DNA from: Candidatus Omnitrophota bacterium
Lineage (GTDB): Bacteria > Omnitrophota > Gorgyraeia > Zapsychrales > Zapsychraceae
Direction of reading: 5' to 3'
Assembly (NCBI GenBank): GCA_023247445.1
Contig: JAHFGL010000002.1
Location: forward strand, 64,553-128,552
Length of the DNA: 64,000 nt
The position numbers and the translations under genes were made by a program. This document shows, one piece after another, positions 9,551 to 62,659 of this stretch. Every line of letters begins with the position of its first letter. Positions within the stretch are counted from its first letter, which is position 1. The notes under the pieces were generated by a model. That model searched no databases, had not been told where the DNA came from, and worked only from the letters and a program-made list of their open reading frames with translations.

Positions 9551-10261
9551 ATGATTATTGTTGAAAGTTTAGTTAAGAATTTTGGATCATTTCCTGCGCT
9601 ACGCAATGTTTCCTTTGAAATCAAAAAGGGAGAGATCGTCGGGTTTCTTGGTCAAAATGGCGCGGGCAAAACAACGCTCATGCGGATTTTGACATCGTAT
9701 CTTCTGCCTTCATCAGGAAAAGTGACGGTAGGTGGCTACGATGTTGTTCGGAATTCTTTGGCTCTTCGCCAAAAAATTGGCTATCTTCCTGAGACACCGC
9801 CTCTTTATTTAGATATGACCACCCGAGACTATTTGCGATTTGCTGCGCAGCTTAAGAATATTCCTGCAGCCCGAGAGCGCCTGCAAATTGATAAAGTTCT
9901 TGAGGAGTGTGATCTTAAAGACGTTGCCAATAAAACTATTGGGATTCTTTCAAAAGGGTTTAAGCAACGAATCGGCATTGCTCAGGCGATTATTAATGAC
10001 CCGGAAGTCCTTATTTTGGATGAGCCCACGAACGGATTAGACCCTATCCAAATCCTTCAAGTGCGTAAACTGATCAAAAATTTAGAACATAAACAAACCG
10101 TCATTTTAAGCACACATATCCTTTCTGAGATACAGCAGATCGCTCAACGTGTCTTGATTATTAAGGCGGGATCTGTCGTTGCTGATGACCTGCTTCCTAA
10201 CTTGTTAAAAAAAGAGAATCAAACGAGTTTAGAAAATGTGTTTTTAAAATTAACATCGTAG
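9551..10261 (+). CDS. ABC transporter ATP-binding protein (GldA-like, ABC-2 type)
   Basis: Walker A GQNGAGKTT, ABC signature LSKGFKQR, Walker B ILILDEPTNGLD. Confidence 0.85.
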   Translation: MIIVESLVKNFGSFPALRNVSFEIKKGEIVGFLGQNGAGKTTLMRILTSYLLPSSGKVTVGGYDVVRNSLALRQKIGYLPETPPLYLDMTTRDYLRFAAQLKNIPAARERLQIDKVLEECDLKDVANKTIGILSKGFKQRIGIAQAIINDPEVLILDEPTNGLDPIQILQVRKLIKNLEHKQTVILSTHILSEIQQIAQRVLIIKAGSVVADDLLPNLLKKENQTSLENVFLKLTS

Positions 10262-10295
10262 TGGTTCGACTTTGCTCACCACAAGGAAACTCTCC

Positions 10296-11006
10296 ATGAA
10301 TAAAATATTTGCCATCGCCGCCAAAGAACTCAAAGCCTATTTCAAATCACCCATTGCGTATATTGTTCTTATCATCACCATTTCCATTTTTAATTTATTC
10401 TTTTTTATGGTCATTGATGAAAATAGAGAGTCGACACTGCGCGATATCTTTAAAGTCATGGAATTTTTGTTTGTTTTTATTGTCCCGCTTTTAACCATGC
10501 GGATTTTTGCTGAGGAAAAATCAACTGGGACGATGGAGTTTCTAATGACAACACCAACTTCAAACACGGTGATTGTGTTTGGTAAATATCTGGGCAGTTT
10601 ACTCTTTTTTAGTTTAATTATTGGATTTAGTTTTAGTTATTACTTGATCATCGAGTATTTTGGTCATCCGGATCGGGCGGCAACATTTTTGGGTTATTTG
10701 GGTCTTTGGTTAGAAGGGGCGATGTTTATCGCCATCGGCCTTATGACCTCCTCGTGGAGCCGTAATCAAATTGTTTCCGCCATGTGCACCTATGTCATTT
10801 TAATTTTCTTATATTTTGCGATTGGTTTTATTAAATATGTTTCCACGACTTTAGAGCCTTTGATTCAATATGTGGGCGTCTTGACTCATTCCGAAAATTT
10901 GACCAACGGTGTTTTGGCAACATCTGACATTATTTATTTCGTGAGCATTATTCTTTTCAGTCTTTTTATAACAAGAATTAGCATTGAAAACAGGCTCTGG
11001 CGATGA
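10296..11006 (+). CDS. ABC-2 family permease (GldF-like)
   Basis: six hydrophobic segments; ORF begins 10272 but ATG at 10296 (MNKIFAIAAKELKAYF) has SD aagga upstream and matches typical ABC-2 permease N-termini. Confidence 0.6.
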   Translation: MNKIFAIAAKELKAYFKSPIAYIVLIITISIFNLFFFMVIDENRESTLRDIFKVMEFLFVFIVPLLTMRIFAEEKSTGTMEFLMTTPTSNTVIVFGKYLGSLLFFSLIIGFSFSYYLIIEYFGHPDRAATFLGYLGLWLEGAMFIAIGLMTSSWSRNQIVSAMCTYVILIFLYFAIGFIKYVSTTLEPLIQYVGVLTHSENLTNGVLATSDIIYFVSIILFSLFITRISIENRLWR

Positions 11007-13910: not shown

Positions 13911-16900
13911 ATGCAAAGACTATATATTATAGAGAAGAGTACCAAGCGTCTTTGGACCCGTTTTATATCTGCTTTTGTCGTTTTTGCCTTTAGCATCAAT
14001 GTTATTATTCCGCCAAGTTACGCGCAATCAACTCCCACACTTTTAAATTTACCTGCGCCGGGAACTATGGTCATGACGACCCCAATCTATCATCCTGCTT
14101 TGGTCAAAGGGCTCATGATTTATCCAGACAATCCGCTTAAATTTGATTTTATTATTGATAAAGGCGACACCAAGCTTTCCGATGAAGATTTCAAAAAAGA
14201 ATCGACCAAGTTAATTAAATATTTCTTGGCGTCGTTGACGACCCCAGAAAAAGAGATGTGGGTGAATCTTTCTCCGTATGAAAAAGACCGCATTATTCCG
14301 CAAGGCTTTGGCCAGACGGAAATGGGCCGCGACATGTTGGCGCAAGATTATTTGCTTAAACAATTATCTGCATCGTTAATGTATCCCGAAGGTGATTTGG
14401 GAAAATCGTTTTGGGATCGGGTGTATAAGAAAGCGAAAGAGAAATTTAATACAACCGATATCCCGATGAATACTTTTAACAAGATTTGGATCGTTCCGGA
14501 AAAGGCACTGGTGTATGAACATGAAAAGGGCGCGTTTGTGGTTAAATCGCATTTAAAGGTTATGCTTGAGGAGGATTATCTGGCGCTTGAGGCCAATAAA
14601 AATTCCACGAAGCACGGCTTGGGTGATGTGAAGAGAGAAGATCTGAAAGTTATTAGCGGCGTGCAGTCGCAAGTTGTTAGAGAAGTTCTGATCCCTGAGA
14701 TTGAGAAGGAAGTTAATGAAGGCAAAACTTTCGCGAACTTAAGACAGATTTTTAATTCGGTTATCTTGGCGAGCTGGTACAAACAGGCCTTAAAAGAAAG
14801 TTTGCTTGGCAAATTTTACGTGGATAAAAGTAAAAACAAGGGTATTGAGGTTGAGGATAAGCAGATTAATCAAAAGATTTATGATCAATATGTCGCGGCT
14901 TTTAAAAAGGGTGTGTACGACTATATTAAAGAAGATTACGATCCGAATACACAGCAGATCATTCCTCGAAAATATTTTTCGGGTGGAGTTGTTGCCGCTG
15001 TAGGGGTTGATACAACTGATGCTAATGATAAGGCAACATCAGAAGCTGTTGCTGATGCTGTTGCGGATCTTGCTGACCCAACCCAAGGCGCTACAGTAAC
15101 AACAACATTGGGTTCCGTTGGCAGTCAGATCACAGAAGGTCAAGATGCTATTACGACATTTTTTGCGAAACCTCGAAGTCGTCGAGATTTTGGCCGAGGA
15201 TCTTTGTTGGCTGCTGCTGTGGCTGCTTTTGGTAGTGGAGTTCTTAGTCGTCGCGCTTCTGCTACAGAAACACAGCAAGTAACTGTTAAAAGTGATATTG
15301 TGCAATGGGTTAATTTTGAGAAAGAAGGAATTGCCGTTGATCCTGTTGTTAGTCAATTAATGGATCGTGCCAAGATTCAAGGTCAAACCGTTGCCATTGT
15401 CCGTAGTTTACCGGCATGGAAACGGTTAATGAATGATTGGAAGGCAGATGCGGGATTTCCAGCACCTCCTTTTGGTGTGAGAACTCAAATCCCCGGAGGA
15501 AGACTCGCCCTTGTTCTTGCCTATGCGCCTATGATGGGCAATGGAGAATATGATTTGTTAGCGCATGAATTATTTCATGAGATTATTGCTTCAAGACAAG
15601 AACCTCAAAGAGGTATTGTTTTTTCTCAAGCACCACTTATTATTAATGATTTTGTAGGAATTATTGAGCAACTACCTCAAAAAGATGCTGTAGCCTTTGA
15701 ACAATTATTGAAATGGATCTATGAAGAATATTTTACGGAATCGGAACGAAGTAAGGGAGGATCGTATTCAATTAAATACTCAATTAAAGGTAACGGTGGA
15801 AGACAAGCTGTAAGTTCTGTTGGCGCCTTTGCCGTCGATGAGCTAATGACTTTCATTTGGCATTGGGGTCAATATGGAAATTTGCCAGGATTACAGGAGA
15901 GATTTGATAAATTAACGCCTGATGAAAAGGCATACTTTAAAAATGTTAGTGGAACGGATCAAAGGATCCGAAGCTTTCTTAATCAAAGCGACCAGAAAAC
16001 AAGAGAAGTTTTTAGAAGATATTTTGAAGATACGCTGCATGTTCCTGTTCCCCGTTTGTTTCAGATAGAGCAAGATCCCGCGATGCTGACGGGGCGAAGT
16101 TTATTGCTAGGAATCGCCTTGAGTGGGTTATTAACTGTGTTTGGAGGTGGATGTTCATCTATGAAAAATAGTCCGCTTACGGCGGCACAACAAGTACAAG
16201 GAATCGTTGACAGTGGAAAAGAAATAAAGATTATATCTCGAGAAGATGCCAAAAAAGAATTTGGAGAATTTTATAATAGAGCTCTAGATGTAGGGAAAAA
16301 AATTACAGACGAAAAGTATGGTCAGGTAATAAACGATGCCAATGATTTAATTGCAACAATAGATGCGAAATTAGCTCAAGGGGGATATACAACAGCAAAA
16401 GGATCAGTAGATGATTTTGAAGGGATCAAAACAGCTCTTAAATATTATAAACTCACAGCGGCGACGGCTATTTTAAAAGCAAATTTAGGTGAACTAAATG
16501 AGTTGGCCAGTAAGGCTTTAGCAGGAGAATTTTTTGCCAAGGCAGGAGATGATCTAGCTAAGGAAGGGAATGGTCCAGCTAGTAAGGAAAAATATGGCGA
16601 GGCTCGTGAAAGTTGGAAAGAAGTCCAAGGAAGAATTGGTGGTCTAATTAACCGTTTAAGTGTAATTGAAGGTGAAAATGTCATTGTCGCTCCTGGTAAA
16701 GGTAGTGCCGCTCCAACCACAGGGCCAGCAGATACTTTTGTTAACCAAGCTAGAGATGCCCAGGAAAGAGCAAGAAAAGGTTTAGAGAAAATTGGCGACG
16801 ACGAAGCGATGTTCAGTGAAAAGGTTGGGTTGGAACTACTTCCTGAGATAGCCGCACATATGAGCGACCCCAATTGGCGTCTGATTGTTGGCCCTGAAGG

Positions 16901-19900
16901 GTTGCTTAAGGTTACAGAAGTTGATCTTGAAAAACAAACAATAACCGTCGTTAGAGAAGGTAACTTGGGGTATTTTTATGTTTCGCGTGGTGGGGATAAT
17001 AGCACGGTCAAGGCACAAAGAGGTCGGCCAACGACAGTCACAGTTAATCAATATTCAAACTTTGCGTTATGGGGCAGTAGGGCCGGATATGAGATGACTA
17101 GAAACAATGCCTTTAGGGCATTTAAAAATCATCGTTGGGTTCCTCATTTGTTTGGGCTAGATGCTATTTATAAACGTTTAGTTGATTCTCCCAAAGCCGA
17201 TTCTATTCTAGAAAAAGTTTTCATCGAAGTTTTCCCAGGACCAGAGCCTATAGGGCAGAAATTAAAAACATTATATGATTCAATATCTTCCAAAACTGTT
17301 TTTCGCACGGAATACAACGATAAAATAAAAGAGATTATTTTGCAGTATTATAGGCAAACAGGAGAGGATCTTATTCGTGCAGGTGTTTTAGAGTCTTTTC
17401 TTAGAGAAGATGCTGATCAAAAAGTTTGGCCGATATTTCATCGAGATGGTGGGACCAATGCAGCGGCCTGGCCATCTATAGGTAATGTCCCTTCGGATGT
17501 TGACTTTTATTTTCGTGAACAAATGTTTAACCAAGGTGTAAACCTTTTGAATAAAGATGAACAAGCAGATCCCATTATTGGATTAAATACTTATTATCCA
17601 ACTTATCGTAATGAGCATAGATCGGATGAATTTAGTCAGAGAATTATTAGGGCTCAAACAGACTTTGAAGAAGGAAGAAGGTTGGCTCAAGAAAATGCGA
17701 GTCGTTTAAAAGATGCCTTAGTGGGACAAGGAATCGATATTAAGGATATTGATTTAATTGTTCCTGTTCCTTCGTTTAAACCCGAAACCAGTCAAGTTGT
17801 TCCCATGACTGATGAATTGTCAAAAGCTCTTAATATTCCAACGAATCCAGCGGCTTTTAAGAAAATCCGTTCAACAGAAAATCAATCAACAATAAGAAAC
17901 CTTTTTGAACGGATTATTAATGTGGTTGGTGCTTTTGAGGCTGATTCACAAGCACTGGCGAATAAGACTGTTCTTATTTTTGATGACAATGTGACGACAA
18001 AAGCTACTTTGTTGGAATTAGCCCGTGTCACCATGGAAGCAGGAGCCAAACGGGTTATTTTAGTGGCTTTGGGAAAAACAATTGAAAAAGATCGTATAGC
18101 TCAAGACGACGCCGCGATGCTGACGGTTGATGAGAAATTTATAACGCAGTTTAACGTTGTTCGTCGTCAGTATTTAAGGGCGATAAGACAGGGAGAGCCA
18201 ACGCATGAGATCCACGATTTAGCTGGGATGGTTATTGAATATATAAAAGGAATTGAAATCCTTTTGGAAGATAAGGCGGCCAAAGGAAATCTCGAGGCCA
18301 AAGTCGCCCTTGATGATTTTCGAGAGATTTTTAATCCCATCGATGATTTGAGATCTCCTGGAGGGAAAGACCGTATCAAAACTAACGAGCCTGAAAGAGA
18401 AGCGGCGGATCGTGAATTTATTATTGAATTTCAATCAAATATAAGATTAAAACAAGTACTGAGAAACATTGAATCTAAACTTTTGGGTGAAGATATTGCG
18501 CGAGCGGCGGGGCTCGATCAAAAAGGGCAAGTCATGTTGGAGAGATATGTGGAAATATTGGCGGCACTCAATAATAAGAGTCTTACTGAAAGCATCGACC
18601 GTTTTGAGCGCGAGACAGATCAAGATGTCCTTGGTCTATTTAATAGAACCCAACCCATTTTGTTCGCTATTTTGCAAGATCCTTTGGAGAAACAGGCCAA
18701 AACGATTACTTCATTAGATGAATTCCTTCGGTTAAGTGATGAAATTCGATATCAATTAAATATGAACGCTTCGCGTGATTTCTTGAGCGCCGCTGAGATC
18801 GCAGATGTAGAGGCGGATAAAAAAGATTTAGGATGGTTACGACAAAGACGTTTTGGACTCTCGCAGACTCAAGGAAAGCTGCGATCTAAAGCTGGCGATT
18901 CAGGGAGAGTTACGGATAATATTGAAATTATTGATGCATCGATCGTTCGTCTTGGTGGAAATTTGGATGACTTTGCGATGTTGACCAATGCAGTTGCGAT
19001 CGCTCAAGAAGCCCTGGATCGACTTAAGAAGGAAACATCAAAAGGGCTTAAGCCACCTTTAGTTATTTTAAGTATTGGTGATGAGGAGACAATCGCAGAT
19101 TACGAGCTTTCATTTAGTAACTTTAGAGATAGAGTTAAAGACGTTGAGAATCTTCTCTCTCGTTTATTGCTAGAGATTGAAAAAGCACCTGTTACATTAG
19201 TGGGCAACATTCAACTTTTAAGCGATGTGGATTTAGATTTTTCTATCATGGAAGAATCTTTAGAAAAAATACGAGATTTAACCGAAACACTCCGTGGAGG
19301 CGAGGGAAGGTTTAATCCTGTCATGGTTGAGCATGTGGCTAATTCAATAAGTGGAGAAATACTATTCGGGCGAGATCAAGTCAACTCATCGCCAGCGCAG
19401 TTATTAAGGGCACTGCGTGAGCTGATAAAATGTTTAGAAATAAAAATAGTGCAAAAATATGAAGCTTTACCAGCATCTGAAAAAATGGTGTTCCCAAAAG
19501 AAGCTATTAGAGAACAACTAGCTCAAACCCGTATAACTTTCTTTATTGACGATTTTATGGAGAAACTAAATATTCCGATTAGACAAAAAGCAGAGCTTGT
19601 AAGATTCTTTCGTGAATTAGGGCTAAACGAGGTCGAAGAGGAGACGTTGCCGGGAACGGGTCTTTGGGAGAATTTGTACAGTAATGCATTGTTTAAGCCA
19701 AAGTTGATGCCGATAGTTTTACACAAAAAATATCCATATTACCACGACTTCGTCGCTGATCCTGGTTATACTGTAAGCGTGCGGGACGCTCGTGGACTTG
19801 AGATTATATCGATGAAAAGAAATGGCACAGGTCAAGTAACAATAAACAATGGAGAGCAATTAACGGCTCGAGCTCGGCCCTTTAGAAGTCCTGCCAGTGA

Positions 19901-20324
19901 TTCAATGTCGGAAGGCGCTGGATATAATTTTGACGCGATGGTCGTTAATGATCAACTAATCATTATCAATATGGGCGATACGCCAATTACCATTAAACTT
20001 GATGAAGCACTGGTGACAAAAAAGGCGGAGTATGGTGGTATCGACATGAATCCGATGATTCTAGAGCGTGAGGTTCAAAAGAATGGTCACGGCGTGATTA
20101 TTCCGATGCCGACCGGCCCGATGCCGGATATGCGTAATATCGAAGGTTTTGTGCCAAGTATTATTAACATCGCGCCAGTTACCAACTTGCCGCTTCTATT
20201 AGGAATTGTAACGCCTAATCAAGCTCCGGTCTCATCTGGTTCTGATACAAATTCCCCCGCAGGTGACTTAGGGTTTTATGACAAGTCAAAATTTTCAAGA
20301 GAAATCGAATTGACTAACATCTAA
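13911..20324 (+). CDS. giant (2137 aa) multidomain protein: signal peptide, possible HExxH motif, internal TM helix, ComF-type phosphoribosyltransferase domain
   Basis: uninterrupted ORF; N-terminal signal FISAFVVFAFSINVIIPPSYAQ; LLAHELFHEI at nt ~15564; hydrophobic segment SLLLGIALSGLLTVFGGG at nt 16082-16150; PRTase motif VPVPSFKP...GAF....NKTVLIFDDNVTTKATLLELARVTMEAGAKRVILVALGKT at nt ~17745-18080. Confidence 0.75.
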   Translation: MQRLYIIEKSTKRLWTRFISAFVVFAFSINVIIPPSYAQSTPTLLNLPAPGTMVMTTPIYHPALVKGLMIYPDNPLKFDFIIDKGDTKLSDEDFKKESTKLIKYFLASLTTPEKEMWVNLSPYEKDRIIPQGFGQTEMGRDMLAQDYLLKQLSASLMYPEGDLGKSFWDRVYKKAKEKFNTTDIPMNTFNKIWIVPEKALVYEHEKGAFVVKSHLKVMLEEDYLALEANKNSTKHGLGDVKREDLKVISGVQSQVVREVLIPEIEKEVNEGKTFANLRQIFNSVILASWYKQALKESLLGKFYVDKSKNKGIEVEDKQINQKIYDQYVAAFKKGVYDYIKEDYDPNTQQIIPRKYFSGGVVAAVGVDTTDANDKATSEAVADAVADLADPTQGATVTTTLGSVGSQITEGQDAITTFFAKPRSRRDFGRGSLLAAAVAAFGSGVLSRRASATETQQVTVKSDIVQWVNFEKEGIAVDPVVSQLMDRAKIQGQTVAIVRSLPAWKRLMNDWKADAGFPAPPFGVRTQIPGGRLALVLAYAPMMGNGEYDLLAHELFHEIIASRQEPQRGIVFSQAPLIINDFVGIIEQLPQKDAVAFEQLLKWIYEEYFTESERSKGGSYSIKYSIKGNGGRQAVSSVGAFAVDELMTFIWHWGQYGNLPGLQERFDKLTPDEKAYFKNVSGTDQRIRSFLNQSDQKTREVFRRYFEDTLHVPVPRLFQIEQDPAMLTGRSLLLGIALSGLLTVFGGGCSSMKNSPLTAAQQVQGIVDSGKEIKIISREDAKKEFGEFYNRALDVGKKITDEKYGQVINDANDLIATIDAKLAQGGYTTAKGSVDDFEGIKTALKYYKLTAATAILKANLGELNELASKALAGEFFAKAGDDLAKEGNGPASKEKYGEARESWKEVQGRIGGLINRLSVIEGENVIVAPGKGSAAPTTGPADTFVNQARDAQERARKGLEKIGDDEAMFSEKVGLELLPEIAAHMSDPNWRLIVGPEGLLKVTEVDLEKQTITVVREGNLGYFYVSRGGDNSTVKAQRGRPTTVTVNQYSNFALWGSRAGYEMTRNNAFRAFKNHRWVPHLFGLDAIYKRLVDSPKADSILEKVFIEVFPGPEPIGQKLKTLYDSISSKTVFRTEYNDKIKEIILQYYRQTGEDLIRAGVLESFLREDADQKVWPIFHRDGGTNAAAWPSIGNVPSDVDFYFREQMFNQGVNLLNKDEQADPIIGLNTYYPTYRNEHRSDEFSQRIIRAQTDFEEGRRLAQENASRLKDALVGQGIDIKDIDLIVPVPSFKPETSQVVPMTDELSKALNIPTNPAAFKKIRSTENQSTIRNLFERIINVVGAFEADSQALANKTVLIFDDNVTTKATLLELARVTMEAGAKRVILVALGKTIEKDRIAQDDAAMLTVDEKFITQFNVVRRQYLRAIRQGEPTHEIHDLAGMVIEYIKGIEILLEDKAAKGNLEAKVALDDFREIFNPIDDLRSPGGKDRIKTNEPEREAADREFIIEFQSNIRLKQVLRNIESKLLGEDIARAAGLDQKGQVMLERYVEILAALNNKSLTESIDRFERETDQDVLGLFNRTQPILFAILQDPLEKQAKTITSLDEFLRLSDEIRYQLNMNASRDFLSAAEIADVEADKKDLGWLRQRRFGLSQTQGKLRSKAGDSGRVTDNIEIIDASIVRLGGNLDDFAMLTNAVAIAQEALDRLKKETSKGLKPPLVILSIGDEETIADYELSFSNFRDRVKDVENLLSRLLLEIEKAPVTLVGNIQLLSDVDLDFSIMEESLEKIRDLTETLRGGEGRFNPVMVEHVANSISGEILFGRDQVNSSPAQLLRALRELIKCLEIKIVQKYEALPASEKMVFPKEAIREQLAQTRITFFIDDFMEKLNIPIRQKAELVRFFRELGLNEVEEETLPGTGLWENLYSNALFKPKLMPIVLHKKYPYYHDFVADPGYTVSVRDARGLEIISMKRNGTGQVTINNGEQLTARARPFRSPASDSMSEGAGYNFDAMVVNDQLIIINMGDTPITIKLDEALVTKKAEYGGIDMNPMILEREVQKNGHGVIIPMPTGPMPDMRNIEGFVPSIINIAPVTNLPLLLGIVTPNQAPVSSGSDTNSPAGDLGFYDKSKFSREIELTNI

Positions 20325-21418: not shown

Positions 21419-21490
21419 GCGTCATTCTGAGCGAAGCGAAGAATCCCAGTCGATCGAGATTCTTCGGCCCTTTGGGCCTCAGAATGACGG
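21419..21490. repeat. palindromic structured repeat, copy 1 (cgtcattctgag...ctcagaatgacg)
   Basis: terminal inverted repeats cgtcattctgagcg/cgctcagaatgacg with internal hairpins gaagaatc/gattcttc and ggccctttgggcc. Confidence 0.8.
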
Positions 21491-21630
21491 AATACGATGA
21501 ACGACATTAGTCTTGCCGAACTTCTCTGGAGAATCGTTGAAGGCTCTTAAGCGAATAATAATATGCTTAAACTCCGTTCCTTATCTTAGATATTGCAAAT
21601 TTTGCATGGCGAAGGATATAATGTCCTCCT

Positions 21631-24600
21631 ATGAAGAGCTCCCCATCGAATGCGTTTTCATTCCCTGAAGTCAGAGTTGTTGAAGCCAGCGCCGGTTCCG
21701 GCAAAACTTTTGCCCTCGCCAAACGTTATATCCAACTTCTTCTTCACCCGTCTTTAACGGTTGACTCCATTCCGATGCGCTCGATTTTGGCAATTACCTT
21801 TACCAACAAAGCTGCCTTCGAGATGAAATCGCGTATTTTGGAATTCTTAAAGTGTATAGCGCTCAAGAAATTATCCGCCGCGCAAGACAATGAGATTCTA
21901 AAGCCGCTAGGGATTAGCCAAGAAGAGGCGAGTGGCAAGGCCTTTCAAATCATGGAGGTCTTGATCCATCATTACAATTTCTTTCAGGTTCAAACTATCG
22001 ACAAATTTATTAACGCGCTTCTTTCCGGATGTGCTTTTAAAATTGGATTAACCGCCAACTTTAAAATTAAAACGAATTCTTACGAATATCTCGAATACAG
22101 CTTGGATCAATTGATCGATCAGGCGGCCCACCACAAAGAATTATCTAAGATATTTCAATATTTTCTTCACAACTATTTGTATCTTGAAAATCGGACGGGC
22201 TGGTTCCCGAAAGAGGATATGCTTTCGATTATGCTGGCCCTTTTTCGTCATCACAATACTTATGGGCTGGATTTTAAGAAAAGTTCGTTGACTCCGGAAG
22301 ATTTGATTAAGAAAAAGAAATCAATCTTGGCGGAGATGAAGACACTACGTTCTATCTTGCCAGAATCGACAGATTTACGTTTTGTTAAGAGTTTTGATAA
22401 GTTCTTGGCGAACACATCAGGCACTTTCGATGTCGATAGTTTGTCAGATTATTTCTTACGCGAGGCGATTCCTATCAAGAAAGGAACAGAAGTTTCTGAT
22501 GAGGCTGACAAACTTTGGGTCAAGATACGAAGTGGAATCCAACAAGTTTGTGAAGAAGAGGCCTATTCACTTTTTAATCCGTATGTTCAGTTGTATTCGT
22601 ATGTCGCCACAAATTTTTATCAGCTTTCGGCCAAAGATGATGTGCTATTTTTGGAGGAATTAAATAAAAGGGCGAGCCGACTTTTTGATAATGAGTATGT
22701 AACGGTTGAAGAACTTTATTTTCGTCTGGCAACGCGTTTTCGTCATTACTTAATTGATGAGTTTCAAGACACCAGCCGCCTGCAGTGGCTTAACATTGAG
22801 AAAATGGCCGAAGAGGCGTTGGCCACCGGCGGATCACTCTTTTATGTGGGCGATCGTAAGCAGGCGATTTATGGATTCCGCGGTGGAGAAGTCACGCTTT
22901 TTGATCAACTTAAAACACAATTTGATGCCTTTAATATTAAAGTCGATTATCTGACCAACAATTGGCGCAGCCAGCGTGCGATTGTCGAATTTAATAATTC
23001 TATTTTCTCCCTCGATAATTTGAAACGATTTATTCGCGAAAAGGAAACCTATGAAGAAGAGAAAAATAAGCGCGGGATGATTGCCTTTAGTGATGACGAT
23101 TTTAACGCGCTGGCCGATATCTTTAAAGGCGCGCAGCAAACGTTTCAGCCGAAGTACAAAGATGGTTACGTCAAAATCGAATATATTGGCTTGGACAAAA
23201 AGGAAGATCGCGATGAAGAAATTCGCACGAAGGTCGTCAGCCTTGTGAAAGATTTACGCAATCGATTTTCTTATCGCGACATCGCAATCTTGACTCGCAG
23301 CAACCAGCAAATTGAGGATTTAACTAACTGGCTCTTGGCCGAAGGAATCTTGGTCGAGTCGGAACGTACCTCTAGCGTCAAAGAGAATCATCTGATTAAA
23401 GAATTGATTTCTTTCCTGAAGTTTTTAGATTCTCCTATCGACAATCTTTCGTTTGCCTCATTTATCCTGGGTGATATTTTCAAGAAGGCCTCGGGATTGT
23501 CAGAATCTGAATTACACACCTTTGTCTTTAAATCACGTGAGCACTTGGCCAATAACAAAGATGCTTATTTATACATGGCGTTTCGGCAGGCGTATCCAGA
23601 AGTTTGGGAGCGTTTGATTAATGAGTTTTTCAAAAATGTCGGACTGTATCCATTGTATGAACTGGTCATTAGCATTTATCATCGATTGAATTGTTTGATT
23701 AATTTTTCCGAGGCGCAAGGATTCTTGATGCACTTTCTTGAACTCATCAAAGAAGAGGAAGAAGATCACGGCGACATCACGTCATTTCTTGATTATTTTG
23801 AGCAGTTGGAGGGCGCCGATTTATTTGTTGCGGTGACCGATACGGATGCGGTCAAAATATTGACAGTTCACAAGGCGAAGGGTTTGGAATTTCCCATCGT
23901 TATAATTCCGTTTCTAGGAATGGACGTTCAGGTTGGGTCGCAGGGCGCGGATCAGCAGCAATCGTATATTGTTAAACGGGATAGTGCCGCCATTGAGCTC
24001 ATTCGTCTTAAGACTAAATATTTAAGCTTTTCAGAGGAGCTGTATCAAATTTATGCGGATGAATATAAGAAGGCGCTGCTTACGGAATTAAATAATGTTT
24101 ATGTCGCGTTAACCCGCGCGCAGTATGAGCTGTATGCTTTTATTCCCAAAAGAATTCAAAACAGTTTTAATCTGGTCAAGTTTCTTATCCCTGAAGATAA
24201 TTTTGAAGCGGGTGTGCAGCACACCTATGATATCAAGCTGTCAGCTGCTGATTCGATCAAGCAATTGCCGCCTTCGCAATATCATGATTGGATTGATTAT
24301 TTGAAGGATGAGTTTTTAGATTTAAACGAACTTAAGAATAGAGAAGAAAGGCGCCGGGGGGAAATTTTACATTTTATGTTATCGTTTGTGGGAAATCTGA
24401 AAGAGGCGAATAAGAAGGAAATCATCCATCGCGCCGCCCAAGAAGCAAAAACACATTTTGCTCAAACAGCTGACTTAACCGCGCATGTTAACTTATTAAA
24501 CCAGTTGTTGGATGAGCCTGCGCTCAAACAATTCTTTTATGTTGATGCGGATGTTAAGACCGAACAGGATGTGGTCAATGCTGTTGGACATCCCAAGCGA

Positions 24601-24789
24601 ATTGATCGGCTTATTATTAAAAAAGATGAAATTATCGTCGTTGATTACAAAAGTTCAGCCCATCCGCAAGATGTGTATCGGGATCAGGTCAAAGATTATT
24701 GTTTAATTGTCCGCGAGATGTATCCGAAGCATCGCGTGAAGGGATATTTGATTTATTTAGATAGTTTTAAGGTTGAAGAAGTTCTCTGA
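21631..24789 (+). CDS. AddA/RecB-like helicase-nuclease (UvrD helicase domain plus C-terminal PD-(D/E)XK nuclease)
   Basis: Walker A ASAGSGKTFAL, FTNKAAFEM, DEFQDTS, GDRKQAIYGFRGG, TVHKAKGLEFPIV, C-terminal IIVVDYKSS nuclease motif. Confidence 0.8.
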   Translation: MKSSPSNAFSFPEVRVVEASAGSGKTFALAKRYIQLLLHPSLTVDSIPMRSILAITFTNKAAFEMKSRILEFLKCIALKKLSAAQDNEILKPLGISQEEASGKAFQIMEVLIHHYNFFQVQTIDKFINALLSGCAFKIGLTANFKIKTNSYEYLEYSLDQLIDQAAHHKELSKIFQYFLHNYLYLENRTGWFPKEDMLSIMLALFRHHNTYGLDFKKSSLTPEDLIKKKKSILAEMKTLRSILPESTDLRFVKSFDKFLANTSGTFDVDSLSDYFLREAIPIKKGTEVSDEADKLWVKIRSGIQQVCEEEAYSLFNPYVQLYSYVATNFYQLSAKDDVLFLEELNKRASRLFDNEYVTVEELYFRLATRFRHYLIDEFQDTSRLQWLNIEKMAEEALATGGSLFYVGDRKQAIYGFRGGEVTLFDQLKTQFDAFNIKVDYLTNNWRSQRAIVEFNNSIFSLDNLKRFIREKETYEEEKNKRGMIAFSDDDFNALADIFKGAQQTFQPKYKDGYVKIEYIGLDKKEDRDEEIRTKVVSLVKDLRNRFSYRDIAILTRSNQQIEDLTNWLLAEGILVESERTSSVKENHLIKELISFLKFLDSPIDNLSFASFILGDIFKKASGLSESELHTFVFKSREHLANNKDAYLYMAFRQAYPEVWERLINEFFKNVGLYPLYELVISIYHRLNCLINFSEAQGFLMHFLELIKEEEEDHGDITSFLDYFEQLEGADLFVAVTDTDAVKILTVHKAKGLEFPIVIIPFLGMDVQVGSQGADQQQSYIVKRDSAAIELIRLKTKYLSFSEELYQIYADEYKKALLTELNNVYVALTRAQYELYAFIPKRIQNSFNLVKFLIPEDNFEAGVQHTYDIKLSAADSIKQLPPSQYHDWIDYLKDEFLDLNELKNREERRRGEILHFMLSFVGNLKEANKKEIIHRAAQEAKTHFAQTADLTAHVNLLNQLLDEPALKQFFYVDADVKTEQDVVNAVGHPKRIDRLIIKKDEIIVVDYKSSAHPQDVYRDQVKDYCLIVREMYPKHRVKGYLIYLDSFKVEEVL

Positions 24790-24794
24790 GTTTT

Positions 24795-24869
24795 CGTCAT
24801 CCTGAGCGTAGCGAAGGATCCCAGAATATCTTAAATGCTTTGAGATTCTTCGCTGCGCTCAGAATGACG
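24795..24869. repeat. palindromic structured repeat, copy 2
   Basis: cgtcatcctgagcgtagcgaaggatc ... gagattcttcgctgcgctcagaatgacg. Confidence 0.8.
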
Positions 24870-24871
24870 TC

Positions 24872-25180
24872 TTGAGGATATTTGTATATATGGATAAGCA
24901 ATCATATGTTTATATTTTATCTAACAAAAGCAACTCGGTTTTATACACCGGCGTTACGAGTGATCTAATAAAGAGAATTTATGAGCATAAGCATAAGTTG
25001 GCTGATGGATTCACAAAGAAATATAACGTAGATAAATTAGTATATTTTGAAGTTTTTGACGATATTGAACAGGCTATATTGCGGGAGAATCAAATTAAGG
25101 GATGGGTAAGAGTTAAGAAATTGGCCTTAATTGAATCGAAGAATTCGAATTGGAAAGATTTATATGGAAATATTTTATGA
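24872..25180 (+). CDS. small GIY-YIG nuclease family protein (UPF0213-like, 102 aa)
   Basis: YVYILSNKSNSVLYTGVTSDLIKRIYEHK (GIY-YIG core) ... ILRENQIKGW; flanked on both sides by repeat-element halves. Confidence 0.75.
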   Translation: MRIFVYMDKQSYVYILSNKSNSVLYTGVTSDLIKRIYEHKHKLADGFTKKYNVDKLVYFEVFDDIEQAILRENQIKGWVRVKKLALIESKNSNWKDLYGNIL

Positions 25181-25212
25181 GATCCTTCGTCCCTTCGGGA
25201 CTCAGGATGACG
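25181..25212. repeat. half-copy of the palindromic repeat (right arm)
   Basis: gatccttcgtcccttcgggactcaggatgacg matches right arm of the cgtcatcctgag family. Confidence 0.7.
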
Positions 25213-28017
25213 GAGCGTAAAGTGAATAAAATTATCACTTACAGTTTTTGTGAACCGTTTATCGATCGCCTAGCCGATTATCTTGAAGAGAATTATATTA
25301 AAAAAGGTAAGGATCTTGGACGTGTGGCTATTGTCTTTGGCGGTAAGAGACCGAGTCTCTTTACAAAACGCGAGTTGGCTCGGCGCATCAAAAAGAGTTT
25401 TTATCCACCACGATTTTTTACGATCGATGAATTTGTGGGTTATACCATTCAAAAGAAAGAAGCCTTTAGCGCGCCGCAGGATTTGGACAGCTGCTATTTT
25501 TTATATCAGCTGATTTCAAAAGTTACGCCTGATCTTTTGAAAGGCCGAAACACCTTCGCGCAATTTCTGCCGTGGACACGCGAGATGTTATCATTTATCG
25601 ATCAGCTTGATTTAGAGATGATTGACGATGATGTTCTCAAAAATATTCAGATCAATGCCCAGATTGGTTACGCTGTTCCAACGGATATTAATCAAATGCT
25701 GCAAAGCATTATTAAGTTAAGAAATATTTATCATGATGAGCTTAAGGAAAAGAAGGTTTATACGCGCGGGTTTCAATATCTTCGTGCGGCGCAGGTTATT
25801 GATCAGGTTGATTTTAAAGAATTTGATGACATTTTGTTTTGTAACTTTTTTTATTTTCACCGAACAGAAGAGGCGATTGTAAAGAAACTCTACGATCAAG
25901 GCCAAGCGACATTAATTTTCCAGGGCGATCAACGTAAATGGCCGATTTTTACACGTATCGCTAAGAATTTTTCCTGCACGATCGAAGAGGGAAAGACCGT
26001 TGACATTCCGCAGTTTGACTTAAAATTATATCAAGGTGGTGACGTTCATGCCCAGGTCTGTCATGTCCGGGAAATTTTAAAAACAATTAAACATCTGGAT
26101 CGTACGGTCATCGTTCTTCCCAATCCTGATCATATCATCCCGCTTCTTTCTGAAATCACCGCCATTGCCAAAGATTTTAATATCTCGATGGGGTATCCAC
26201 TTAAGCGCAGCAGTCTTTATTCGCTGTTTGAATTTGTTTTTAAGACTCAGCTATCCCGACGTCAGCATGAATATTATGCGAAGGATTATTTAAAAGTTTT
26301 GCGTCATCCGTTTGTAAAAAATTTGAGTTTGGCGGAGAGTCCAACGATTACGCGAACTTTGATTCATAAGATTGAAGAAATTTTAACCGGCAAAGAACCG
26401 TCGGCTCTTTCTGGCCAACTCTTCTTTGAGTTGGAAGACATGGAAAGCTTAGATGAGCTTTTTATGTTAACACTCGAATCACTTGATCGATTGGGCATCA
26501 AAAGTAATCGCGATCAGTTACTTTTGATTTTGGAAGAGATTCATAATCTATTTTTCTTAGAATGGGAAAAGATTAATAATTTTGCCGTGTTTGCAGTTGT
26601 TTTAGAAAATTTTCTAGATGTTCTTATCGAAAAAAGCTTTCTCAAGAATTATCCATTGAATCTTAACATCGCGACGAAGATGTATGCGATTAAAGATGAA
26701 TTGGCGCAGACATCTTTTAAGGAAGAACATTTTTCCGCAGAAGAAATATTTAGAATCTTTGACGGAAAAATCAGCAGGGAAATGGTGGCCTTTGTTGGAT
26801 CTCCGCTACGAGGTTTGCAGGTCTTGGGTCTTTTTGAAACACGATCACTTAACTTTGAAAATGTTATTGTGCTCGATGTCAACGAAGGGACGTTACCAAA
26901 CTTGCGCATCTATGAACCGCTTATCCCGCGAGAAGTGATGATTAGCCTAAGTCTTGATCGATTGGAGCTGGAAGAAGAGATTCAGCGCTATCAATTCATG
27001 CGACTTATCTCGTCCGCAAAAAATGTACATTTAGTTTATCAACAGAGTAAAGATAAAGAACGAAGTCGATTTGTTGAAGAGCTTGTTTGGGAAAAGCAGA
27101 AGGAACTTAAGACATTAGATGTTCTGCCGATTGAACAGGCGAGTTTCGCTGTCCATGTTTCCTCGCAGAAAATAAGTGTTAAGAAGACAAAAGAAATGAC
27201 GGAATATCTAAGGCAAATTAAATATTCCGCGACGAGTATTAATACGTATCTGCGCAACCCTTTAGAATTTTATTACAAATATGTTTTGGGTTTGAAAGAA
27301 GAGGAAGACTTGTTAGATGAGCCGGAGGCGAGGCAAGTGGGGACGTTTGTCCATGAACTTTTGGAGGCAGCCTTTACACCGTTTTTAAAACGTAAACCGG
27401 AGATTAATGCTCACTTTCGCGAGCGATTTGCGCGGATGTTTGAAGAAAGATTTACAAACACCTTTGGCCGCAGCATGAAATCAGATTCATTTTTGTTAAA
27501 ATCCGTTTTAGTGGAACGGTTAAATCGATTTTTAGATAATGAACAATTTAATGAAGACCGCGCCGTTGAAGAAATTTTATATTTAGAGAATCATTTTGAA
27601 GATGTGGTTCCTCTTTCGTGCGGTGACATAAAGTTTCGTTATATCGTTGATCGCGTTGATCGTTTAAAAGACGGAACGATTGCGATCATTGACTATAAAA
27701 CAGGAAGCATTAATCAGATGCCCAAAGACATTAGTCGGATTTTGTCCACTTCCTCTTCGCGCGAATCGATTCGAGACAACGTTCGGTCTTTTCAAATTCC
27801 GCTTTATTTCTATTATCTCGACAAACAATATACAAATCAGCCCATCAATGCTGTTTTATATAATTTGAGAACTTTAGAGTTGCATCGTTTTATCGATGAT
27901 AAAATGACGTACAGCCGTGAGCAAATTAATAATGGATTTCTAAAGGCGTTAGATTTTATCATTACTGAAATCATAAACCCTGATGTGCCGTTTGTGGAAG
28001 ATCAACCACCCTATTAA
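25207..28017 (+). CDS. AddB-like PD-(D/E)XK nuclease/inactivated-helicase subunit
   Basis: C-terminal RecB-type nuclease motifs GTFVHELLE ... IAIIDYKTG; partner of upstream AddA-like gene; ORF track start 25150 lies inside the repeat (peptide ..GLRMTE), so ATG 25207 is preferred. Confidence 0.65.
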   Translation: MTERKVNKIITYSFCEPFIDRLADYLEENYIKKGKDLGRVAIVFGGKRPSLFTKRELARRIKKSFYPPRFFTIDEFVGYTIQKKEAFSAPQDLDSCYFLYQLISKVTPDLLKGRNTFAQFLPWTREMLSFIDQLDLEMIDDDVLKNIQINAQIGYAVPTDINQMLQSIIKLRNIYHDELKEKKVYTRGFQYLRAAQVIDQVDFKEFDDILFCNFFYFHRTEEAIVKKLYDQGQATLIFQGDQRKWPIFTRIAKNFSCTIEEGKTVDIPQFDLKLYQGGDVHAQVCHVREILKTIKHLDRTVIVLPNPDHIIPLLSEITAIAKDFNISMGYPLKRSSLYSLFEFVFKTQLSRRQHEYYAKDYLKVLRHPFVKNLSLAESPTITRTLIHKIEEILTGKEPSALSGQLFFELEDMESLDELFMLTLESLDRLGIKSNRDQLLLILEEIHNLFFLEWEKINNFAVFAVVLENFLDVLIEKSFLKNYPLNLNIATKMYAIKDELAQTSFKEEHFSAEEIFRIFDGKISREMVAFVGSPLRGLQVLGLFETRSLNFENVIVLDVNEGTLPNLRIYEPLIPREVMISLSLDRLELEEEIQRYQFMRLISSAKNVHLVYQQSKDKERSRFVEELVWEKQKELKTLDVLPIEQASFAVHVSSQKISVKKTKEMTEYLRQIKYSATSINTYLRNPLEFYYKYVLGLKEEEDLLDEPEARQVGTFVHELLEAAFTPFLKRKPEINAHFRERFARMFEERFTNTFGRSMKSDSFLLKSVLVERLNRFLDNEQFNEDRAVEEILYLENHFEDVVPLSCGDIKFRYIVDRVDRLKDGTIAIIDYKTGSINQMPKDISRILSTSSSRESIRDNVRSFQIPLYFYYLDKQYTNQPINAVLYNLRTLELHRFIDDKMTYSREQINNGFLKALDFIITEIINPDVPFVEDQPPY

Positions 28018-31913: not shown

Positions 31914-31965
31914 TGTCATCCCCGTGAAAACGGAGATCTAGATACCCGCTTTCGCGGGTATGACA
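31914..31965. repeat. palindromic structured repeat, copy (tgtcatccccgtgaaaacggagatc...acccgctttcgcgggtatgaca)
   Basis: termini tgtcat/atgaca with two internal hairpins. Confidence 0.7.
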
Positions 31966-38909: not shown

Positions 38910-39026
38910 CCCCTCGGGAATTCTTTCCCGAGGGGTCATCCTGAGGAACGGCTGCCTGCCGCAGGCAGAAGTGACGAAGGATCTCCTAGGAGATCCTTCA
39001 GTCGCTTTTGCTCCTTCAGGATGACG
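38907..39026. repeat. compound palindromic repeat (gacccctcggga hairpin + gtcatcctgagg...ccttcaggatgac element with perfect 24-nt palindrome gaaggatctcctaggagatccttc)
   Basis: multiple nested inverted repeats; same termini family as other copies. Confidence 0.8.
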
Positions 39027-53495: not shown

Positions 53496-53782
53496 GGGAT
53501 AGGGGCAGTTTGACACCCCTCTGCCAGCATGTTATACTTTCGACGCAGATATGAAAGGGTAAACCTTCCGTAAGGATGGGACACAAAACTATAGGGCCCT
53601 ACAATAGAGGGCAGCCAGTTGCCAAGATGAGCGATTTTTGTGAACCTATTCCCAAAGAAGGAATAGGTTTTTTTATCAGTGTAGGAAAGTATATAGGAAT
53701 TTAGAAACTGCTAGAAAATTCCTTTCCTACACAGCAAAGAAGATATGACGAACGAAGTGAGGAATTTTCTTGTGAAAAGTCT

Positions 53783-54012: not shown

Positions 54013-54411
54013 ATGAAACGAACAAATCAAAGTGGTTTTACGTTAGTAGAAATTATGATCGTTGTTGCGATCATTGCGCTATTAGCGGCGATTGCAATTC
54101 CAAACTTACTTCGCGCTAAGATTTCAGCCAATGATGCCAACGCGCAGGCAACTTTGCGAAGTATGTCTACTGCTTCCGAAACTTTTGGAACAGCAAACAA
54201 TGGGAGTTATCCAGCAGCGGTCACCTCAATGGTTACAGGGTCTACACCACCCTATCTTAATAGTAACTATTGCGGGGTAACGATGGATGGGTATGCGTTT
54301 TCATGTACTAATACGACAGGTGCATATACTTATATCGCAACACCGACTACGGTAGGAACAACAGGGACGACAACCTACACAATGACAACAGGCGGAATTT
54401 TAACTCCGTAA
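54013..54411 (+). CDS. pilA: type IV major pilin (class III signal peptide)
   Basis: N-terminus MKRTNQSGFTLVEIMIVVAIIALLAAIAIPNLL; strong SD aaaaggagag; Thr/Gly-rich C-terminus. Confidence 0.85.
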   Translation: MKRTNQSGFTLVEIMIVVAIIALLAAIAIPNLLRAKISANDANAQATLRSMSTASETFGTANNGSYPAAVTSMVTGSTPPYLNSNYCGVTMDGYAFSCTNTTGAYTYIATPTTVGTTGTTTYTMTTGGILTP

Positions 54412-60029: not shown

Positions 60030-60101
60030 GTCATGCCCGAATGTTTTAATCGGGCATCCAGTTTTGTTCTCGCTTAGATCCCCACTTTCGTGGGGATGAC
60101 A
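60030..60101. repeat. palindromic structured repeat (tgtcatgcccgaatg...ggatccccactttcgtggggatgaca)
   Basis: near-identical to copy at 62582-62659. Confidence 0.8.
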
Positions 60102-62581: not shown

Positions 62582-62659
62582 TGTCATCCCCGAATGCATT
62601 AATCGGGGATCTTAGCAAATTATTACTATTTCTGGATCCCCACTTTCGTGGGGATGACA
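62582..62659. repeat. palindromic structured repeat (tgtcatccccgaatgcattaatcggggatc...gatccccactttcgtggggatgaca)
   Basis: termini tgtcatc/gatgaca; hairpins ccccga..tcgggg and ccccac-tttc-gtgggg. Confidence 0.8.

Follow-up and report, generated by a model that had tools for sequence, protein, structure and literature searches.

A GIY-YIG nuclease gene of the probable Ssn family and its hairpin repeats at an AddAB-like gene junction in an Omnitrophota bacterium

The window analysed here is a stretch of 64,000 nucleotides (64 kb) from a Candidatus Omnitrophota bacterium. The original prediction had placed a short GIY-YIG reading frame between a full copy and a half copy of a palindromic repeat, with AddAB-like genes on either side, and we found each of these elements where it had put them. 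The locus is composed as follows.

21631–24789, + strand: gene for an AddA-like helicase-nuclease of 1052 aa, directly preceding the insertion (Pfam UvrD-helicase, UvrD_C and PDDEXK_1).
24790–25221, no strand assigned: inserted block of 432 bp, made up of two hairpin units, the ssn gene and one hairpin unit.
24795–24820, + strand: hairpin unit, variant SRM, CGTCATCCTGAGCGTAGCGAAGGATC, with GTC, the stem ATCCT/AGGAT, then C.
24844–24869, − strand: hairpin unit with stem ATTCT/AGAAT, pairing with 24795–24820 as a palindromic doublet.
24890–25180, + strand: probable ssn-family gene encoding a 96-aa nuclease with GIY-YIG as its one domain; the coordinates take in the stop codon (from Pfam, identity to an SsnA orthologue, an AF2 model and conserved residues).
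25181–25212, − strand: hairpin unit with stem ATCCT/AGGAT and inner hairpin TCCC-TTCG-GGGA, the probable cognate partner of 24795–24820.
25222–28017, + strand: AddB-like gene (Pfam PDDEXK_1, weak AddB matches and the N-termini of orthologues).

The two flanking genes are adjacent and have the AddAB architecture, with a UvrD-type helicase plus a C-terminal PD-(D/E)XK domain in the AddA-like product and a C-terminal PD-(D/E)XK domain in the AddB-like product. We refer to them as AddAB-like because their matches to the NCBIfam AddA, AddB and RecB-like models fall below the cut-offs. The true start of the AddB-like gene is probably the GTG at 25222, with GGAG at 25212–25215. Two other starts, inside or before the repeat, have been called, at 25177 (ATG, 946 aa, the public annotation) and at 25150 (TTG, the ORF lists). 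The public product (P0121, 946 aa) begins MRSFVPSGLRMTERKVNKIITYSF, unlike the orthologues, which begin M[S/N]KIITYSF. That the repeat might mislead gene callers had been foreseen, and this is what we see: the public call begins within the repeat and, judged by the orthologues, adds 15 spurious residues.

In related Omnitrophota, addA and addB overlap by 4 nt or are spaced by a few bases, and in the nearest AddB orthologues (67–68% identity) the overlap is 4 nt. Because none of the 17 related junctions compared carries a GIY-YIG gene, we take the 432-bp block, its size being measured against relatives with overlapping addA and addB, to be an insertion. Judging from these relatives, the SRM–ssn–SRM block with one extra unit now occupies a junction that was ancestrally overlapping or tightly spaced, in agreement with the prediction that an insertion splits the AddAB-like pair. 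The block is probably read through within the addA–addB operon.

The full repeat copy (24795–24869) is an inverted repeat whose 29-nt arms are 86% complementary and lie 17 nt apart, and as single-stranded DNA it folds at −23 kcal/mol (z = −7.6). The downstream unit (25181–25212) begins at the base right after the TGA stop of the ssn gene, and complementarity between its final 12 nt and the first 12 of the full copy's left arm is 100%. The window has 5 copies of the repeat's terminal 14-mer, where 0.2 would be expected, and 3 copies of its 19-mer core, where 0 would be. All three units at the gene have GTC directly 5′ and C directly 3′ of the stem, and they are of a longer, branched variant in which a 5-bp outer stem leads through a GAG/GAAG internal loop to an inner hairpin that varies.

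The reading frame noted earlier (24872–25180, 102 aa) is present, but its start is probably six codons too early. We prefer the ATG at 24890 as the likely start, giving 96 aa, because it agrees with the public gene call (P0001) and with homologues of 96–97 aa. The protein has a Pfam GIY-YIG match over residues 5–75 (E = 2.7e-17), with no Pfam match to a second domain such as a DNA-binding domain, and none of the NCBIfam models matches it. The AF2 model (pLDDT 90.7) is one compact domain with the GIY-YIG fold, and its nearest folds are UPF0213, Slx1 and the GIY-YIG domain of UvrC-N.

Ssn nucleases (cd10448) bind NTS/SRM hairpins when the DNA is single-stranded, and their cut falls just upstream of the hairpin (Chenal et al. 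2025 Nat Commun; PMC11893778). Homology to the family was set at E < 1e-10 to Neisseria SsnA (PMC11893778), and the window protein falls within this threshold against the 94-aa N. gonorrhoeae SsnA orthologue (~49% identity, E = 6e-35, pairwise), the sequence used here for comparison rather than N. meningitidis (Nm) NMV_0044 itself. A tblastn search of the N. gonorrhoeae chromosome gave 49.5% identity at 97% query coverage (E = 3e-24). The catalytic residues reported for Nm SsnA, Y6, Y17 and E64 (PMC11893778), are present in the N. gonorrhoeae orthologue, and Y8, Y19 and E66 of the window protein have the identical spacing. These three residues, together with R29 and H33, are invariant among 47–84 homologues. 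Beside the catalytic Glu, position 67 is Asn in the window protein and Lys in 96% of homologues and in Neisseria, a substitution that could impair the window nuclease. Size and domain content are also those of the family (about 94–97 aa, GIY-YIG only).

The repeats point the same way. The 5′ GTC and the 3′ C are the positions most critical for SsnA cutting and binding (PMC11893778), and the window has both flanking GTC-hairpin-C units and dispersed intergenic copies; the N. gonorrhoeae ssnA orthologue has 9 exact NTS copies within 3.3 kb around it. The published degenerate SRM pattern, HGTCWYN(0-2)YYVSBRHN(0-5)WNVSBRGN(0-2)RNCYNB, was derived from 29 genomes (PMC11893778) and is a search aid, not a definition of the family; it matches the canonical NTS and has no match at the three gene-flanking units. 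Since these units lie outside the pattern, with their 5-bp outer stem, internal loop and inner hairpin, their recognition may differ from that of SsnA. Taken together, we consider it very probable that 24890–25180 encodes an Ssn-family nuclease of the cd10448 type and that the three surrounding units are its cognate SRM hairpins.

The window contains 13 units in its 64 kb, arranged as 6 doublets and 1 single, and all are intergenic. The stand-alone doublets, none with a strand assigned, are of two types.

21420–21491: type A doublet, as at the gene, intergenic; fold −21.9 kcal/mol, z = −5.6.
31914–31965: type B (NTS-like) doublet, both units matching the published SRM pattern.
38935–39025: type A doublet with long inner hairpins, intergenic; fold −32.3 kcal/mol, z = −7.4.
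60030–60100: type B doublet, intergenic; GTCATGCCCG...CGGGCATC / GATCCCCACTTTCGTGGGGATGAC.
62583–62658: type B doublet, intergenic, identified from sequence and fold.

Apart from the doublet at 31914–31965, the window has no match to the published pattern. The intergenic repeats of this genome tend to adjoin stop codons on the 3′ side. A target-site duplication, as a transposon or MITE with terminal inverted repeats would leave, was looked for at the flanks of 88 doublets: none was found, conservation there being limited to Y at −1 and R at +1, and none was seen in the sequence at 24790/25221.

We examined about 80 homologous loci from many phyla for units of the form GTC-hairpin-C. A forward unit lies within 130 nt upstream of 62 of the 83 homologous genes (75%), and a reverse unit within 60 nt downstream of 53 (64%). 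Units number 8.6/kb at up to 150 bp from the gene and about 0.3/kb at distances over 500 bp, a difference of ~30-fold. The stem bases co-vary: of 57 downstream units, 45, spread over 6 triplet types, have a complementary stem triplet, whereas permutations average 17 and never exceed 26. Protein clades follow repeat type, and in one genome two paralogues lie side by side, each accompanied by a repeat type of its own. The published SRM pattern is found within 300 nt of only 10 of the 84 nearest homologues, and no Y1 transposase was seen among the called neighbours of the loci examined. The prediction that the nuclease gene travels with this repeat family thus holds for about three in four of some 80 homologous loci. 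Neither of the two observations named as contrary to it, a gene never found by the repeat or relatives with the identical arrangement lacking repeats, was made.

By homology to the characterised members, each unit would form a hairpin when in single-stranded DNA, and the Ssn protein would bind it through the stem sequence and the C after the stem. It would then cleave that strand, a few nucleotides to the 5′ side of the conserved GTC. Duplex DNA and RNA would not be acted on. The in vivo role of Ssn is known only for Neisseria, which is naturally competent. By analogy, the cellular role here may be to restrict or trim motif-bearing single-stranded DNA that enters the cell or becomes exposed. 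The module may also be a domesticated, formerly mobile nuclease–repeat pair that drives the spread of its own repeats, as in REP/RAYT.

Compatible with the Ssn identity, but rather unlikely in our judgement, is that the SRM–ssn–SRM block is an active IS-like element, mobile as a whole and mobilised by the nuclease. The IS-like architecture of ssn loci has been remarked on (PMC11893778), and here inverted units bracket the gene like terminal repeats. The site is empty in relatives, one homologue sits with its units inside a prophage-like element, and proteins 60–73% identical to the window nuclease occur in very distant phyla, which suggests horizontal transfer. To our knowledge, however, no strand-transfer chemistry is known for a hydrolytic GIY-YIG domain. 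The doublet flanks lack a target-site duplication and conserve only the Y and R, and the window has a single copy of the ssn gene. Moreover, for two homologues with an identical protein on many contigs, 24 of the 24 places read for each lay in one same gene context, a result that covers those two homologues and leaves aside how many copies the window's own genome has. With AddB identity of just 67–68% to the closest empty-site relative, the block may also have been assembled stepwise in place. A broader proposal joins a distinct branched hairpin class, a mobile block and coupling to AddAB, and as a whole we regard it as quite improbable. Within it, most of the 80 nearest homologues may recognise GTCAT-NNN-GAG, a variable inner hairpin and GAAG-N'N'N'-ATC, in an Ssn branch found in Omnitrophota, Planctomycetota, Chloroflexota, Desulfobacterota, Cyanobacteria and others, a hairpin class outside the published SRM definition, and the SRM–ssn–SRM block may be mobile as a unit, now or recently. 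The block would then have landed in the operon of the AddAB-like end-resection machine, and as that machine would generate the nuclease's single-stranded substrate, the two could be functionally coupled.

The original prediction likened the gene to a homing endonuclease or MITE cargo, and this part is not borne out, as the protein is a bare 96-aa catalytic domain, no target-site duplication was seen, the characterised Ssn members do not cut double-stranded DNA and the two homologues read on many contigs each keep to a single context. A free-standing homing endonuclease gene that cuts duplex repeats and is copied in by repair would account for a gene between inverted repeat arms that occur elsewhere without it, and there are weak PHROG matches to homing endonucleases (E about 3e-4). 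It is nonetheless very unlikely, given the lack of a DNA-binding domain and the inactivity of the characterised Ssn members on duplex DNA (PMC11893778). The window gene also lies beside a complete doublet and not within one, the stand-alone doublets have at their centres short palindromes, not gene remnants, and no orthologous pair of sites with and without the gene inside a doublet was found. We give a very slim chance to the hairpins acting as RNA, by stabilising the operon transcript, providing processing sites in it or attenuating it, with the nuclease unrelated. The doublet hairpin is very stable and sits inside the operon without a separate promoter or terminator, and a sub-threshold Rfam match to an Aggregatibacter sRNA model containing a similar palindrome shows that such repeats are transcribed. 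Against this, no Rfam family reached the gathering threshold, the motif in RNA form is not bound by SsnA (PMC11893778), and a generic RNA function leaves unexplained the linkage of units to the gene across phyla and their co-varying types. Chance neighbourhood, with common repeats accumulating beside an old resident gene, has next to no probability left: the habit of this genome's repeats to follow stop codons would favour it, but it is already contradicted by the homologue linkage, the unit enrichment at about 80 loci and the absence of the gene from all 17 related junctions.

Several known systems resemble the probable Ssn locus. With REP/REPIN–RAYT and BIME systems it shares a single-copy enzyme gene flanked by inverted hairpins and many gene-less copies as inverted doublets and alternating arrays, and likewise a short conserved motif 5′ of the hairpin, recognition in single-stranded DNA and co-varying enzyme and repeat types. 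The enzymes, however, are unrelated in fold and chemistry, a hydrolytic GIY-YIG domain here and an HUH tyrosine transposase (IS200/IS605-derived Y1) there; the motif is GTC(A) and not GTAG, and the nuclease is not known to rejoin DNA. The GIY-YIG homing endonucleases I-TevI and Seg have the same catalytic domain and are likewise small, selfish-looking genes between host genes, but the window protein has no linker or DNA-binding domain, its family acts on single-stranded DNA, and its gene is not in an intron or phage genome. Slx1 and UPF0213 (BH0048, PDB 1zg2) offer the closest solved folds, a minimal domain and a preference for structured DNA, whereas sequence similarity is marginal (E = 4.7e-5) and the window protein has no RING finger or partner protein; Ssn has been treated as a separate family (PMC11893778).

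The likeness to Ssn/SsnA extends to the single domain of ~95 aa, the Tyr/Tyr/Glu spacing, the flanking GTC/C hairpins, the dispersed intergenic copies and clusters, and the co-variation of protein type with repeat type. The window locus differs in the Lys-to-Asn change beside the catalytic Glu and in the orientation of its units, forward upstream and reverse downstream, opposite to those at the N. gonorrhoeae gene. We therefore regard the locus as a fresh example of the known Ssn system and not a new kind of element. What is new is its host, an uncultured Omnitrophota-like bacterium that adds the phylum Omnitrophota, and its longer, branched hairpins outside the published SRM pattern.

The gene at 24890–25180 (+), between an AddA-like and an AddB-like gene, very probably encodes an Ssn nuclease that acts on single-stranded DNA and is paired with cognate hairpins of a variant SRM type. 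The original prediction had described a GIY-YIG nuclease gene set between a full copy and a half copy of a palindromic repeat, and we found that the region reads as it stated:

24789, end of the AddA-like gene, directly upstream of the palindromic element
24795–24869, palindromic element with arms CGTCATCCTGAGCGTAGCGAAGGATC and GATTCTTCGCTGCGCTCAGAATGACG (29-nt arms, 86% complementary)
24890–25180 (+), GIY-YIG nuclease (ssn) gene
25181–25212, single repeat unit GATCCTTCGTCCCTTCGGGACTCAGGATGACG, its first base directly 3′ of the nuclease TGA stop

We refer to GTC, hairpin and C together as a unit, and to two inverted units as a doublet; the order along the locus is unit (+), unit (−), gene, unit (−). 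Folded as single-stranded DNA, 24795–24869 gives −23 kcal/mol (z = −7.6). The final 12 nt of the unit at 25181–25212 pair perfectly with the initial 12 nt of the left arm at 24795, and both carry the stem ATCCT/AGGAT; the stem of the middle unit is ATTCT/AGAAT. The motif is far above chance in the window, where its terminal 14-mer has 5 matches against 0.2 expected and its 19-mer core has 3 against 0.

The ORF list starts the nuclease gene at TTG 24872; ATG 24890 gives the 96-aa product listed in public databases (P0001), a length that agrees with homologues of 96–97 aa. The protein matches the Pfam GIY-YIG domain (E=2.7e-17), and the catalytic residues Tyr8, Tyr19, Arg29, His33 and Glu66 vary little or not at all across 47–84 homologues. 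Its AlphaFold model is confident (pLDDT 90.7), the closest solved folds being, in order, UPF0213 protein BH0048, Slx1 and the UvrC N-terminal domain. Adjoining the catalytic Glu, codon 67 (25088–25090) encodes Asn in the window protein and Lys in 96% of relatives and in Neisseria SsnA; activity of the Asn67 enzyme may be changed or lowered. As a candidate defence gene it gave no match in PADLOC, and as a candidate phage gene it gave weak PHROG matches only, with one weak match among 50,697 phage records.

The 94-aa SsnA of Neisseria meningitidis consists of a single GIY-YIG domain and belongs to CDD family cd10448; it binds the NTS hairpin repeat (CGTCATTCCCGCGMAVGCGGGAATCYRG) exclusively in single-stranded DNA, cutting a few nucleotides upstream (Chenal et al. 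2025, PMC11893778). Cutting depends most on the GTC immediately preceding the palindrome and binding on the C that follows it; the loop is not required and can be replaced or extended (PMC11893778). The same study found a flanking SRM on at least one side of 71% of Ssn homologues across phyla and on both sides of 42%, demonstrated own-motif cutting for four of them, showed that SsnA in Neisseria reduces transformation by NTS-bearing DNA, and itself drew the parallel with IS elements and REP/RAYT (PMC11893778). A 2006 GIY-YIG survey leaves the repeats unmentioned. The window locus agrees with this family in size, domain, catalytic residues and flanking hairpins. In two N. gonorrhoeae chromosomes in PLSDB, the window protein matched a single place (49.5% identity, E=3e-24). 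The protein encoded there has 94 aa, carries Tyr6, Tyr17 and Glu64 and gives a pairwise E-value of 6e-35; around its gene lie nine exact copies of the NTS within 3.3 kb. Exact NTS consensus sequences also flank two homologues (L046, L056) that share 61–62% identity with the window protein. Both gonococcal records (NZ_CP119140.1 and NZ_CP119142.1) are 2.17-Mb chromosomes filed as plasmids, and several other multi-megabase PLSDB "plasmids" among the matches are likely to be chromosomes or chromids.

More than 5,700 relatives of the window protein were found at E ≤ 0.001, and a one-genome-per-species scan returned 522. The best 80 of these 522, 58–73% identical, come from Omnitrophota, Planctomycetota, Chloroflexota, Desulfobacterota, Cyanobacteria, Clostridia, Campylobacterota, CPR, Alphaproteobacteria and further groups. 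Nearly all of the 80 have a forward unit ending 4–30 nt ahead of the ATG and a reverse unit starting from or over the stop codon, as in TGA followed directly by GATTGCTTCG...CTCGCAATGAC. The strict detector placed a unit upstream of 62 of 83 genes and downstream of 53 of 83, and unit density falls with distance from the gene, from 8.6 per kb in the first 150 bp to 1.6 per kb at 150–500 bp and about 0.3 per kb beyond; that gene and repeats adjoin by chance is unlikely. The stem differs by lineage (ATTGC, ATTCT, ATCCT, ATTCC, ATCCC and others) and its partner strand co-varies. When the test was anchored on bases outside those tested, the stem triplet was fully complementary in 45 of 57 downstream units, over six triplet types (permutations: mean 17, maximum 26), a figure that shared ancestry inflates and that we count as supporting evidence, not as a probability. 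In a neighbour-joining tree the proteins cluster according to repeat type, and in genome L003 two ssn paralogues 300 bp apart each carry their own type. Since the pairing of Ssn and SRM has already been reported, the association, the co-variation, the conserved GTC and C, and the REP-like doublets and arrays restate a known system (PMC11893778).

Neighbouring units are mostly of alternating orientation. One identical Ssn protein (P0106) occurs at ten places in ten different samples (L090–L099) with 1 to 7 units downstream of its gene. This locus reads gatB, ssn, pilin-like gene; its unit arrays alternate in orientation like BIMEs, the start of ssn lies over the gatB stop codon, and the upstream unit is absent. 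In many phyla, N. gonorrhoeae included, complete units are adjoined by tandem partial duplications, in which the outer end of a unit (e.g. ...GCAATGAC) plus 8–20 nt of flank is repeated 2–4 times. These could have arisen when the flank was cut and then repaired, or when slippage occurred at the hairpin:

L004, about 10290–10390, tandem partial duplication
L010, about 9890–10000, tandem partial duplication
L020, about 6250–6320, tandem partial duplication
L113, about 2216–2300, tandem partial duplication
L118, about 1380–1420, tandem partial duplication

Across the window, we applied a detector that required GTC, a 5-nt stem with A as its first base, the complement of that stem up to 60 nt on, and then C. 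It found 15 places, where shuffles gave 5.5. Of the 15, 13 are evident units, making up six inverted doublets and the single unit at the gene; all 13 are intergenic, most directly after stop codons, and they split into two types:

21420–21491, 24795–24869, 25181–25212 and 38935–39025, type A: GTCATYCTGAG, a variable inner hairpin, then GAAGRATC
31914–31965, 60030–60100 and 62583–62658, type B: intergenic doublets of a plain, NTS-like hairpin such as GTCATCCCCG...CGGGGATC

The 64-kb window has no second ssn gene alongside the type B doublets. Because the adjacent paralogues of L003 each have their own repeat type, a partner gene for type B may lie elsewhere in the same genome.

In the upstream neighbour, UvrD helicase domains are accompanied by a C-terminal PD-(D/E)XK nuclease, and the downstream one has a PD-(D/E)XK nuclease with weak AddB matches; we call the pair AddAB-like because both genes score below NCBIfam cut-offs. 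In the closest AddB orthologues found (Omnitrophota, 67–68% identity), addA and addB overlap by 4 nt, as ATGA. Among 17 informative related junctions, six overlap, four have gaps of 7–20 nt and seven contain palindromic repeats. The GIY-YIG gene is absent from all 17, and 24790–25221 (432 bp) therefore reads as an insertion into an ancestrally compact junction. This comparison of a filled site, its genes 432 bp apart, with sites that overlap in relatives adds evidence for arrival by insertion; the block could also have been assembled stepwise at the site, the empty-site relatives being distant. Palindromic repeats have landed at this junction repeatedly. In another Omnitrophota lineage (L112 158–288; L113/L114 2216–2501) it has independently gained GTCAT-type units, with ATTCT and ATTGC stems and no ssn gene, and unrelated palindromes occupy it in L086, L088, L104 and L107.

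The caution that the repeat may mislead gene callers was borne out. The public AddB call P0121 (946 aa) begins at an ATG overlapping the nuclease stop and reads MRSFVPSGLRMTERKV ahead of NKIITYSF, against orthologue N-termini of M(S/N)KIITYSF. The true start is likely GTG 25222, with GGAG just before it. The repeats have thereby put a 15-residue false N-terminus on AddB; in other genomes, nuclease ORFs run on into repeats.

How the gene and its repeats move was interpreted in the original prediction by likeness to a homing endonuclease or MITE cargo, and this interpretation is partly supported: insertion and travel with the repeats stand, and homing into duplex repeats is unlikely. An active IS-like element would be compatible with an Ssn nuclease, but we consider it improbable, as rejoining chemistry, target duplication and multiple copies are all lacking. 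We saw no target-site duplication or insertion motif beyond Y/R beside the repeat ends. Recent multi-copy transposition was rejected: two homologues whose identical protein lies on many contigs (24 read each) kept one gene context throughout. One route of horizontal spread for ssn is a prophage-like or integrative element (L100–L103, Ssn protein P0041), in which a D5-type primase lies on one side of the gene and its flanking units and a large serine recombinase on the other.

A purely RNA-level role of the hairpins is likewise unlikely, and the Ssn reading is preferred. A promoter and terminator search of the block gave no terminator-like site and a sole promoter-like match, located within the nuclease gene, a yield not above that of shuffled sequence; this lack of consensus suggests that transcription reads through from the flanking operon.

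A known RNA family was sought for the repeats and rejected. Rfam at the gathering threshold returned only an unrelated c-di-GMP-I riboswitch aptamer at 53548–53626 (+) (60 bits, gathering score 35), between an upstream ORF ending at 53495 and a downstream ORF at 54013–54411. Permissive scans of 24700–25300 gave sub-threshold hairpin look-alikes only, namely microRNA models, Acido-Lenti-1 at 15.7 bits and RF02901. RF02901 (AaHKsRNA41, an Aggregatibacter "sRNA") matched 24789–24945 below threshold (28 bits, threshold 97). Its consensus holds a palindrome much like the type A doublet, GCUGAGC..CGAAGCAUC ... GAUG.UUCG..GCUCAGC, and the family may have been built on an SRM-like doublet. Elsewhere in the window, a giant 2137-aa ORF (13911–20324, +) has as its sole match a weak sub-threshold Pfam phosphoribosyltransferase domain and is otherwise unannotated.

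These results extend the Ssn/SRM system to an uncultured Omnitrophota lineage, and the filled and empty addA–addB sites support the published suggestion of a mobile-element origin for the NTS–ssn–NTS architecture. The published degenerate SRM pattern fits the canonical NTS and fails at all three units beside the window gene; in the window it fits the doublet at 31914–31965 only. It matches within 300 nt of 10 of the 84 nearest homologous genes, whereas the generic detector finds units at most genes (upstream 62/83, downstream 53/83). On this pattern matching, the variant used by the branch is longer, its loop position being occupied by an internal loop plus a variable inner hairpin. Surveys built on the pattern would miss the hairpins of this large branch and under-count Ssn–repeat pairs, and the range of target structures for single-stranded-DNA tools would be wider than described. 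The units around the window gene are oriented in reverse of those at the gonococcal gene, and their filled loop position fits the published finding that the hairpin loop can be replaced or extended (PMC11893778).
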